From assembly GCF_003334315.1 (NCBI RefSeq), contig NZ_QOWR01000001.1: a stretch of DNA of 64,000 nucleotides. One strand, given 5' to 3'. The DNA comes from Escherichia coli. Its GTDB lineage: Bacteria; Pseudomonadota; Gammaproteobacteria; Enterobacterales; Enterobacteriaceae. This document shows, in pieces, positions 51,030-51,470 of this stretch. Under the pieces are notes generated by a model, which was given only the letters and a program-made list of their open reading frames with translations, was not told the origin of the DNA and did no database searches. A program made the translations under genes and the position numbers. The first letter of the stretch is position 1. Every line of letters begins with the position of its first letter.

Positions 51030-51470
51030 ATGAAACGACTTCTGATTCTTACGGCACTCCTGCCGTTTGTCGGCTTTGCACAGCCCATTAATACTCTGAA
51101 CAACCCTAACCAGCCGGGGTATCAGATACCCAGCCAGCAGCGGATGCAAACCCAGATGCAGACTCAGCAAATCCAGCAAAAAGGGATGCTGAATCAGCAA
51201 CTGAAAACGCAAACTCAGTTGCAACAGCAGCATTTAGAAAACCAGATAAACAATAATTCTCAGCGGGTGTTGCAGTCACAGCCGGGGGAGCGAAATCCCG
51301 CCCGGCAGCAAATGCTGCCCAACACCAACGGCGGGATGTTAAACAGCAACCGTAATCCGGATAGTTCGTTGAATCAGCAGCATATGCTGCCGGAGAGGAG
51401 AAACGGCGACATGCTGAATCAGCCCAGCACGCCGCAGCCTGACATTCCGTTGAAAACTATTGGGCCGTAA
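51030..51470 (+). CDS. yhhA: Secreted Gln/Asn-rich low-complexity protein YhhA
   Basis: 146-aa ORF with signal peptide [17 protein letters not shown] followed by Q/N-rich repeats. Confidence 0.85.

Follow-up and report, generated by a model that had tools for sequence, protein, structure and literature searches.

Among the described systems that lie closest to the product of the yhhA gene are the ATP-independent periplasmic chaperones and modulators Spy, CpxP and ZraP, which form a helical-hairpin cradle, are regulated through Cpx, Bae and Zra, and belong to the Pfam families LTXXQ (PF07813) and Metal_resist (PF13801). SilE and PcoE are exported proteins of about 140 aa, intrinsically disordered and methionine-containing, which become helical upon ligand binding. 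The curli subunits CsgA and CsgB are exported by the Sec pathway, are rich in glutamine and asparagine and build an RpoS-dependent functional amyloid in the stationary phase. Glutamine-rich helices can also form coiled coils that nucleate aggregation, and by the Michelitsch-Weissman criterion a region is reportedly counted as Q/N-rich when at least 30 glutamines and asparagines fall within 80 consecutive residues. Hydrophilins, in the definition that Garay-Arroyo et al. are said to have given in 2000, contain more than 6% glycine and have a very high hydrophilicity index.

The locus that we set beside these systems lies in a stretch of 64,000 nucleotides from Escherichia coli (contig NZ_QOWR01000001.1), which as a whole is called the window below. 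The initial annotation, made from the letters of this DNA, had read the gene as yhhA, coding for a secreted low-complexity protein, and our searches bear out the identification. The gene and its ribosome binding site are placed as follows:

51030..51470, plus strand: yhhA coding sequence, DUF2756 family, with an ATG start and 146 codons plus the stop (ORF coordinates and HMM matches)
51016..51023, plus strand: strong Shine-Dalgarno sequence GAGGAGGA, read from the sequence, whose GGAGG core ends 7 nt 5' of the start codon

At the spot of this Shine-Dalgarno sequence a purine-rich block of the GGAG type is present in 16 of 16 aligned genera. The translated protein matches Pfam DUF2756 (PF10956) over model positions 1-105 of 105 with an i-E of 1.1e-60, as well as the NCBIfam equivalog PRK10350 (NF007675) over positions 1-145 of 145 with 265 bits against a cutoff of 136, and Pfam scans returned no family other than DUF2756. 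Of 5426 complete E. coli genomes, 5425 contain the locus by megablast; it is chromosomal in each of them and bears the annotation "yhhA: DUF2756 family protein". The allele of the window shows 100% DNA identity to that of K-12 MG1655, of B and of numerous further strains. The neighbours in the window are the divergent ggt upstream and the convergent ugpQ-ugpC downstream; in 32 of 32 loci of many genera ugpQ converges on yhhA and closely adjoins it, and ggt stands upstream in 27 of these 32. The gene is one that had already been annotated (YhhA/DUF2756), its unusual composition being on record, and it is real, conserved and expressed. We are highly confident of the identity of YhhA and of its architecture as laid out below.

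An exhaustive phmmer search with YhhA against 1.84 billion cluster representatives matched only 65 proteins, and word-indexed searches gave a few hundred clusters, all of them DUF2756. The family is confined to the Enterobacteriaceae (Escherichia, Salmonella, Citrobacter, Enterobacter, Klebsiella, Cronobacter, Cedecea, Buttiauxella, Kosakonia and others) and the Erwiniaceae, where Pantoea, Erwinia, Mixta and Tatumella carry a shorter form of the protein. Sequence comparison of YhhA with solved structures gave either no match or matches at chance level (E 0.07), PADLOC returned nothing for yhhA, Rfam nothing meaningful and PHROGs only a marginal match (E 0.049). The statement of the initial annotation that the function is essentially uncharacterised holds as well: the mentions of YhhA in the E. 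coli and Salmonella literature, in about 20 papers, are omics lists only, nothing relevant was found under P0ADX7 and b3448, and the literature searched yielded no phenotype, partner or localisation experiment on the protein.

Across Enterobacteriaceae and Erwiniaceae the protein keeps its residues at individual positions, the glutamine-rich core included: R38 and M43 do not vary, and for Q37, Q40, Q46, Q47, Q49, Q50, L54, Q56, Q61, Q66, L69 and Q72 conservation reaches 90% or more. Between species, dN/dS amounts to 0.03-0.16 for yhhA overall, to about 0.01-0.07 for codons 34-83 and to 0.03-0.48 for the C-terminal tail. When seven E. coli alleles are compared with that of the window, the codon changes sum to 78 synonymous and 9 nonsynonymous ones, in comparisons that share polymorphisms and are not independent of each other. 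Therefore, on the strength of the residue-level conservation, the low dN/dS and the excess of synonymous codon changes, the YhhA reading frame is a real, constrained protein under strong purifying selection and no loose low-complexity filler.

Two kinds of variation within E. coli deserve a comment here. The E. coli protein clusters include YhhA alleles of 96-165 aa, with all indels falling within residues 38-117, which could be read as hypervariable length. We rejected this reading, because in a spread sample of 60 of the 5425 complete E. coli genomes yhhA measures exactly 441 bp in all but one truncated record. Thus the length variants do not represent a common polymorphism; they are alleles of low frequency or products of assembly. 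Direct repeats in the yhhA DNA, spaced by 30/33 nt and only 75% identical, plausibly account for the rare in-frame indel alleles. Between E. coli strains, synonymous divergence in the glutamine-rich core also seems to be 10-fold too high. This excess was rejected as a special feature of the gene, since NG86 inflates dS at two-fold codons and the ggt-ugp region is a mosaic at 3-9% divergence.

The composition that had drawn attention to the protein is confirmed. The strings quoted in the initial annotation are found at residues 40-50 and 57-67, and mature YhhA consists of 22% Q, 14% N, 11% P, 9% L, 6% T and 5.5% M. Glutamine and asparagine together make up 32% of the whole protein; for the 66 reading frames of the window with at least 120 aa the median is 8%, and the runner-up reaches 18%. 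The mature protein, of about 14.7 kDa, is very hydrophilic and basic (GRAVY -1.4, pI about 10.4), its longest run of Q or of N is 3 residues, 14 prolines in total flank the core, and cysteine and tryptophan are absent from every member of DUF2756. The further claim, that these residues are arranged in loosely repeated units, does not hold up beyond what the composition alone predicts. Tandem Repeats Finder reported no repeat in yhhA, and the best self-match of the protein scores 34, within the range of composition-preserving shuffles (28.5 +/- 3.7, maximum 44). Since the DNA repeats mentioned above are weak as well, the impression of repeats is mostly a by-product of the biased composition, and we rejected internal repeats as a real architecture.

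The protein can be divided into four segments, encoded one after the other:

51030..51080, plus strand: Sec-type signal peptide, residues 1-17, with predicted cleavage between A17 and Q18 (n/h/c architecture with a small residue at -1/-3, shared by all homologues)
51081..51128, plus strand: N-tail of the mature protein, residues 18-33, proline-rich and highly conserved (pLDDT 52-56; dN/dS 0-0.11 where measurable)
51129..51278, plus strand: glutamine-rich core, residues 34-83, predicted to be a single long alpha-helix and the central conserved part of DUF2756 (AlphaFold2; pLDDT of the block about 71-90)
51279..51467, plus strand: C-terminal tail, residues 84-146, predicted to be disordered, with conserved short motifs (pLDDT below 50; dN/dS 0.03-0.48)

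By a rule-based reading, the N-terminus starts with MKR, follows the n/h/c layout of Sec substrates up to A|QP and has no lipobox cysteine. The secreted protein with a clear signal peptide that the initial annotation had described stands as far as the Sec layout is concerned, which is conserved across DUF2756; export is plausible on these grounds, and the cleavage site, like residence in the periplasm, is deduced from the same layout. The N-tail carries the sequence NNPNQPGY, which is kept across genera. For the core, AlphaFold2 with an alignment of 33 sequences predicts one uninterrupted helix from residue 34 to 83, bounded by P34 and P85, with both tails modeled at low confidence. The pTM of this model is 0.26, and the helix may be a mere default for a glutamine-rich sequence. 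The C-tail harbors motifs that include NGDML and the conserved C-terminus PQP(D/N)IPLKTIGP, which are kept in the genera with the long form. A regular-expression count gives 0 to 6 G/H-M-L motifs per family member, and expanded C-tails are visible in Kosakonia and Cronobacter. The short forms of the Erwiniaceae stop just after SQPG, so that they retain the core and are devoid of the motif-bearing tail. Therefore, the helix together with the N-tail constitutes the core of the family, the same part that the Pfam model covers, and the motifs of the tail cannot be essential to the core function of the family.

We searched the predicted helix for a conserved or amphipathic face. Its hydrophobic moment does not exceed that of shuffled sequences, which gives no indication of an amphipathic helix; in Fourier analysis the alpha-helical band is significant neither for conservation (p = 0.18) nor for mean hydrophobicity (p = 0.36), and no heptad or hendecad periodicity was detected in YhhA. 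An amphipathic helix, a coiled coil and a hendecad stripe were rejected on these grounds. As the helix shows no significant periodicity of an amphipathic or conserved face, we cannot point to an evident surface for client binding.

The region upstream of the gene contains one short block that is far better conserved than its surroundings:

50994..51003, plus strand: block GTAAACTTAA, candidate sigma-S-type -10 element (TAAACT at 50995-51000, then TAA), invariant or nearly so in 16 genera

It lies about 27 nt 5' of the yhhA ATG in a spacer whose mean identity, in the alignment of the 16 genera, is 69%. The block GTAAACTTAA agrees at most positions with the extended sigma-S -10 consensus, a CTAYRCTTAA-like sequence, and has G instead of C at -13; a generic sigma-70 scan of the yhhA upstream region found no promoter. 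The block is a candidate for the sigma-S-type -10 element of the yhhA promoter. Published data link the gene to RpoS: a SELEX site of the RpoS holoenzyme has been located in the ggt/yhhA spacer (PMC5493296), yhhA is listed among the genes of the RpoS regulon and is induced after a shift to cold (PMC4057180), it is induced together with rpoS at the transition to stationary phase (PMC2241611), and the YhhA protein drops in parallel with RpoS and OsmY (PMC7056703). The gene also belongs to an up-regulated hub common to multiple stresses (PMC9501238), rises 5.6- to 9.9-fold upon treatment with a LolCDE inhibitor (PMC5105897) and is reported in the literature to be induced by mild acid. At the level of the protein, YhhA increases under beta-lactams below the MIC (PMC9927464), has been quantified in a Salmonella proteome, and is named beside Pal, SodC, ZraP and YmgD in a figure legend on surface/envelope extracts made at 60 C from stationary STEC (PMC9731836). 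The possibility, allowed for in the initial annotation, that the reading frame is not expressed is thus contradicted by repeated published detections of transcript and protein, co-regulated with RpoS.

The 3' end of the gene carries information for the opposite strand as well:

51457..51470, both strands: 14-bp overlap of the convergent 3' ends of yhhA (plus strand) and ugpQ (minus strand), from the ORF coordinates and the RefSeq annotation
51396..51435, minus strand: probable intrinsic terminator of the ugpBAECQ operon, antisense within yhhA codons 126-136 (terminator scan)

On the minus strand, a GC-rich hairpin with a stem of 12-13 bp runs from 51435 to 51406 and is followed by a T-rich tract from 51405 to 51396. 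The hairpin lies about 21 nt past the ugpQ stop and has a dG of -21.6 kcal/mol, with a z of -3.35 relative to dinucleotide shuffles. It is present in E. albertii too, and in three Citrobacter loci the same hairpin is followed by a better, textbook T-run, TTCTTTTTTT. Judged from its sequence, the hairpin inside the 3' end of yhhA is probably the intrinsic terminator of the ugpBAECQ operon, placed antisense to yhhA. On the plus strand, the terminator scan found no terminator within 230 nt 3' of the yhhA stop, which is consistent with the inclusion of the yhhA-ugpQ pair among listed excludons (PMC12288877). In Cedecea, yhhA and ugpQ are separated by a spacer, and it is in this spacer that the hairpin is located. 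The C-terminal peptide motif of YhhA is still kept there, without overlap or embedded hairpin, and therefore the constraint at the level of the protein is real.

Taken together, these data lead us to a proposal on the role of YhhA, which we put forward tentatively and with clearly less than even confidence: YhhA may be a largely disordered, RpoS-induced binding protein that protects the periplasm under stress. From a sigma-S-dependent promoter the protein would be made in the stationary phase as well as in response to stress, of the envelope and of other kinds, and the Sec pathway would export it into the periplasm. There it would present a 50-residue glutamine-rich helix (34-83) between disordered tails containing proline, asparagine and methionine, with NNPNQPGY, several G/H-M-L motifs and the C-terminal IPLKTIGP as its tail motifs. 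The helix and the multivalent short motifs would bind envelope components or unfolded proteins, and such binding would protect or organise these partners in non-growing cells. YhhA would then be an intrinsically disordered, ATP-independent periplasmic stress protein, neither an enzyme nor a prion. The binding and protective mechanism as a whole is our deduction, to which the identity and ubiquity of the gene, its synteny, the purifying selection, the predicted helix, the hydrophilicity and the reports of RpoS-linked expression lend support; to be counted against it are the absence of a relationship to CpxP, Spy and ZraP, the lack of helix periodicity, the pTM of 0.26 and the short forms without the tail.

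One would argue that the composition of YhhA points instead to a prion-like, amyloid-like or condensate-forming protein, whose Q/N region would make it assemble reversibly with itself, be it in the periplasm or at the cell surface. Indeed, residues 21-100 contain 36 glutamines and asparagines in 80 residues, a content that qualifies as Q/N-rich, a 50-residue segment rich in glutamine is free of proline, and YhhA has been recovered in cell-surface heat extracts (PMC9731836). However, no run of Q or N exceeds three residues, prolines flank the core on its two sides, the core is predicted to be helical, and neither heptad nor hendecad periodicity was detected; Pfam gives no curlin repeat and no other amyloid family, and no genes for dedicated secretion or nucleation were seen near the locus. 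Additionally, prion domains typically conserve their composition only and tolerate scrambling, whereas the evolutionary signature of YhhA is the opposite, with conservation residue by residue and a dN/dS of 0.01-0.07 in the core. Thus, of the low-complexity and prion-like character that the initial annotation had ascribed to the protein, the Q/N content stands and the prion-like part is weakened by this conservation, the predicted helix and the short runs, and we consider a prion-like YhhA unlikely. The annotation had also called such a composition unusual for a periplasmic protein; exported Q/N-rich proteins do have a precedent in E. coli, for example in the curli subunits. In a more specific version, to which we assign a distinctly small probability, YhhA would be a periplasmic scaffold whose glutamine-rich helix and multivalent ML motifs self-assemble reversibly, as coiled-coil bundles, a condensate or an amyloid-like form, in the envelope of the stationary phase; this reading would be compatible with the Q/N content, the proline-free segment and the naming of YhhA in stationary-phase envelope extracts. 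If it were true, it would mean a phase change with a protective role, of a kind not known from this compartment. The methionines offer another explanation, namely that YhhA is a scavenger or metal sponge in which they act as oxidant sinks repaired by MsrP or bind Cu(I)/Ag(I) in the manner of SilE and PcoE. Mature YhhA has 7 methionines, M43 is invariant, several G/H-M-L motifs are conserved in the long forms, expression is induced by stress, and size, export and disorder resemble SilE/PcoE. However, the number of methionines varies from 1 to 10 across DUF2756 and the short forms have few ML motifs, so that methionine does not define the family. The methionines of YhhA stand 8-25 residues apart except for a single MxxxM (M39/M43), there are no MxxM/MxM or HxxM clusters and only 2 histidines, the only match to a metal-binding family is a marginal one to Metal_resist in one of 12 divergent members, which profile comparison does not support, and regulation of yhhA by Cu/Ag or HOCl was not found in the literature searched. 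A methionine-based function is, in our opinion, improbable.

It could be that the locus acts mainly as RNA, the yhhA transcript running antisense into ugpQ and its 3' end housing the ugp terminator, while the protein is secondary. In favor of this are the convergent ugpQ, which overlaps or tightly abuts yhhA in all 32 loci, the missing plus-strand terminator, the strong terminator-like hairpin of the minus strand inside yhhA and the excludon listing. Yet purifying selection on the amino acids extends along the whole reading frame, far from the overlap, the protein has been detected in several proteomes, and Cedecea preserves the C-terminal peptide motif although its genes do not overlap and its hairpin is intergenic. 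Effects of the RNA may coexist with a function of the YhhA protein and cannot replace it; that they are the main role of the locus is very unlikely. A type III secretion effector that mimics substrates of the ATM kinase through S/TQ motifs has also been proposed (bioRxiv 10.1101/364117). Such an effector would be expected to have an N-terminal secretion signal that is not cleaved and to be distributed together with a type III system. However, I6L is the only difference between YhhA of EPEC E2348/69 and the K-12-type protein, the classical cleavable Sec signal peptide, as read by rule, directs the protein to the periplasm and not to a type III system, and TQ/QT motifs are a trivial outcome of a Q/T-rich composition. 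The gene is moreover present in all but one of the complete E. coli genomes, including K-12 and B, which are not known to carry the type III system of the LEE, and it also occurs in a large number of non-pathogenic genera. We rejected the effector claim on the basis of the signal peptide and of this distribution, which includes many genera without a type III system, and regard it as extremely unlikely.

We keep the stress-protective binding protein as our preferred, though tentative, reading. Among the "y-genes" of E. coli, yhhA belongs to those still uncharacterised; it is a core gene that is induced repeatedly by RpoS-linked and envelope stresses. Its product is unusually disordered and glutamine-rich for the periplasm, and its binding target would be informative on how the envelope is protected in the stationary phase. 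No new mechanism emerges from our analysis, and the sequence feature that had been flagged was already annotated. By-products of the analysis are a domain map of the protein (signal peptide, N-tail, Q-helix and motif-bearing C-tail), a candidate sigma-S -10 element and a probable antisense ugp terminator.

When compared with known systems, the gene of the window does not differ from yhhA of K-12 (DUF2756/PRK10350): the HMM match is full-length, and the length and the ggt-yhhA-ugpQ context are equal. YhhA shares the density of glutamine and asparagine with the Q/N-rich prion domains of yeast Sup35 and Clostridium botulinum Rho, but in contrast to these it is conserved position by position, has a predicted helix bounded by prolines, lacks homopolymer runs and is extracytoplasmic by its predicted export. 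With the curli subunits CsgA and CsgB it has Q/N richness, Sec export and the link to RpoS in common, whereas curli is a beta-solenoid and YhhA is predicted to be helical. The Curlin_rpt family gave no match to YhhA in Pfam and no csgEFG-like export genes are found near yhhA, which is flanked by ggt and the ugp operon; YhhA does not belong to the curli system. SilE and PcoE are alike in export, size, disorder and the presence of methionine, and do not match in sequence. YhhA has none of the HxxM/MxxH motifs, has a variable methionine count across its family, and is chromosomal and reportedly under RpoS control instead of plasmid-borne and metal-induced; on these points it does not belong to the metal sponges of the SilE/PcoE type. 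As regards hydrophilins and LEA proteins, the GRAVY given above is strongly negative, but glycine makes up about 5.5% of mature YhhA, and a search for the 11-mer period that group-3 LEA proteins should show gave no signal.

There remain the chaperones Spy, CpxP and ZraP. One JGI record labels a Pantoea DUF2756 protein as "Spy/CpxP family", and a Pfam scan of 12 divergent DUF2756 members gave a marginal match to PF13801 in one of them. In spite of this label and this match we rejected membership of YhhA in the group, as hhalign of YhhA against E. coli CpxP, Spy and ZraP gave probabilities of 0.2-2.2%, which means no detectable homology. YhhA has no LTXXQ motifs, is reportedly regulated by RpoS and not by the Cpx, Bae or Zra systems, and instead of the helical-hairpin cradle it is predicted to form a single helix with disordered tails. 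Nevertheless, these chaperones are, like YhhA, small, exported, helical, stress-induced and of similar size, and they provide a reasonable functional analogy for it.

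Candidate regulatory signals around yhhA lie in part in its spacer with the divergent ggt gene and in part in its own coding sequence, where it faces the convergent ugpQ. The elements are the following:

50931-50941, minus strand: GC stem-loop GGGG-CAA-CCCC, immediately upstream of the ggt ribosome-binding site
50945-50964: strongly conserved TAAGCCTGGTnnAnAAC block, adjoining the GC stem-loop
50994-51003, plus strand: GTAAACTTAA block of the ggt-yhhA spacer, invariant in 16 genera
51396-51435, minus strand: strong hairpin with a T-tract, ~21 nt past the ugpQ stop codon

The GTAAACTTAA block reads as a sigma-S-like extended -10 element and is probably the promoter of yhhA. 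The hairpin with its T-tract is kept in Escherichia and Citrobacter and is probably the intrinsic terminator of the ugpBAECQ operon, lying antisense within codons 126-136 of yhhA. Such a placement would put this stretch under a dual constraint, on the peptide and on the RNA structure.

Within E. coli, rare yhhA alleles have lost or duplicated 3-50 codons in frame, resulting in proteins of 96-165 aa, and all of these changes fall in 51140-51380 (codons ~38-117). Several of them match direct repeats of 30/33 nt, which is consistent with replication slippage. The indel alleles are mostly singletons, and some of them may be assembly artefacts. When the locus was searched by megablast against complete E. 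coli genomes, a yhhA match was absent from only one of the 5426. In strain A16 (otter; NZ_CP028758.1), the match covers yhhA only as far as nt 208 and does not take in ugpQ, which suggests that a deletion or rearrangement has truncated the gene in this strain. A point change is also on record: C41(DE3), a strain used for protein overproduction, has T in place of C at yhhA nt 290 (window ~51319), reported as Pro to Leu. This change is found neither in BL21(DE3) nor in C43(DE3) and is probably irrelevant according to the authors of the study (PMC4632034).

On the ggt side, the GC stem is kept in Escherichia, Citrobacter and Cedecea while its loop varies, and the adjoining TAAGCCTGGTnnAnAAC block may contain elements of the ggt 5'UTR or promoter. 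Temperature regulation of ggt is known. The 5' end of ggt itself, i.e. the signal-peptide region (50730-50880), is a local hotspot of divergence: four of the five strains compared differ there by 21-26 positions per 150 nt and the fifth by 12, against 3-13 in most other ggt-ugp windows of the same comparison. The stretch to the left of ggt (48030-49200) is non-homologous between E. coli strains, which differ there in their yrhA/yrhB/yhhY/DUF4225 content.

As to known protein families, automated annotation in some sources variously names DUF2756 homologues 'membrane-bound lytic murein transglycosylase', 'exonuclease VII large subunit', 'outer membrane protein' or 'Spy/CpxP family protein refolding chaperone'. 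All four names look like compositional false positives, apparently caused by the predicted Q-rich helix (residues 34-83 of YhhA).
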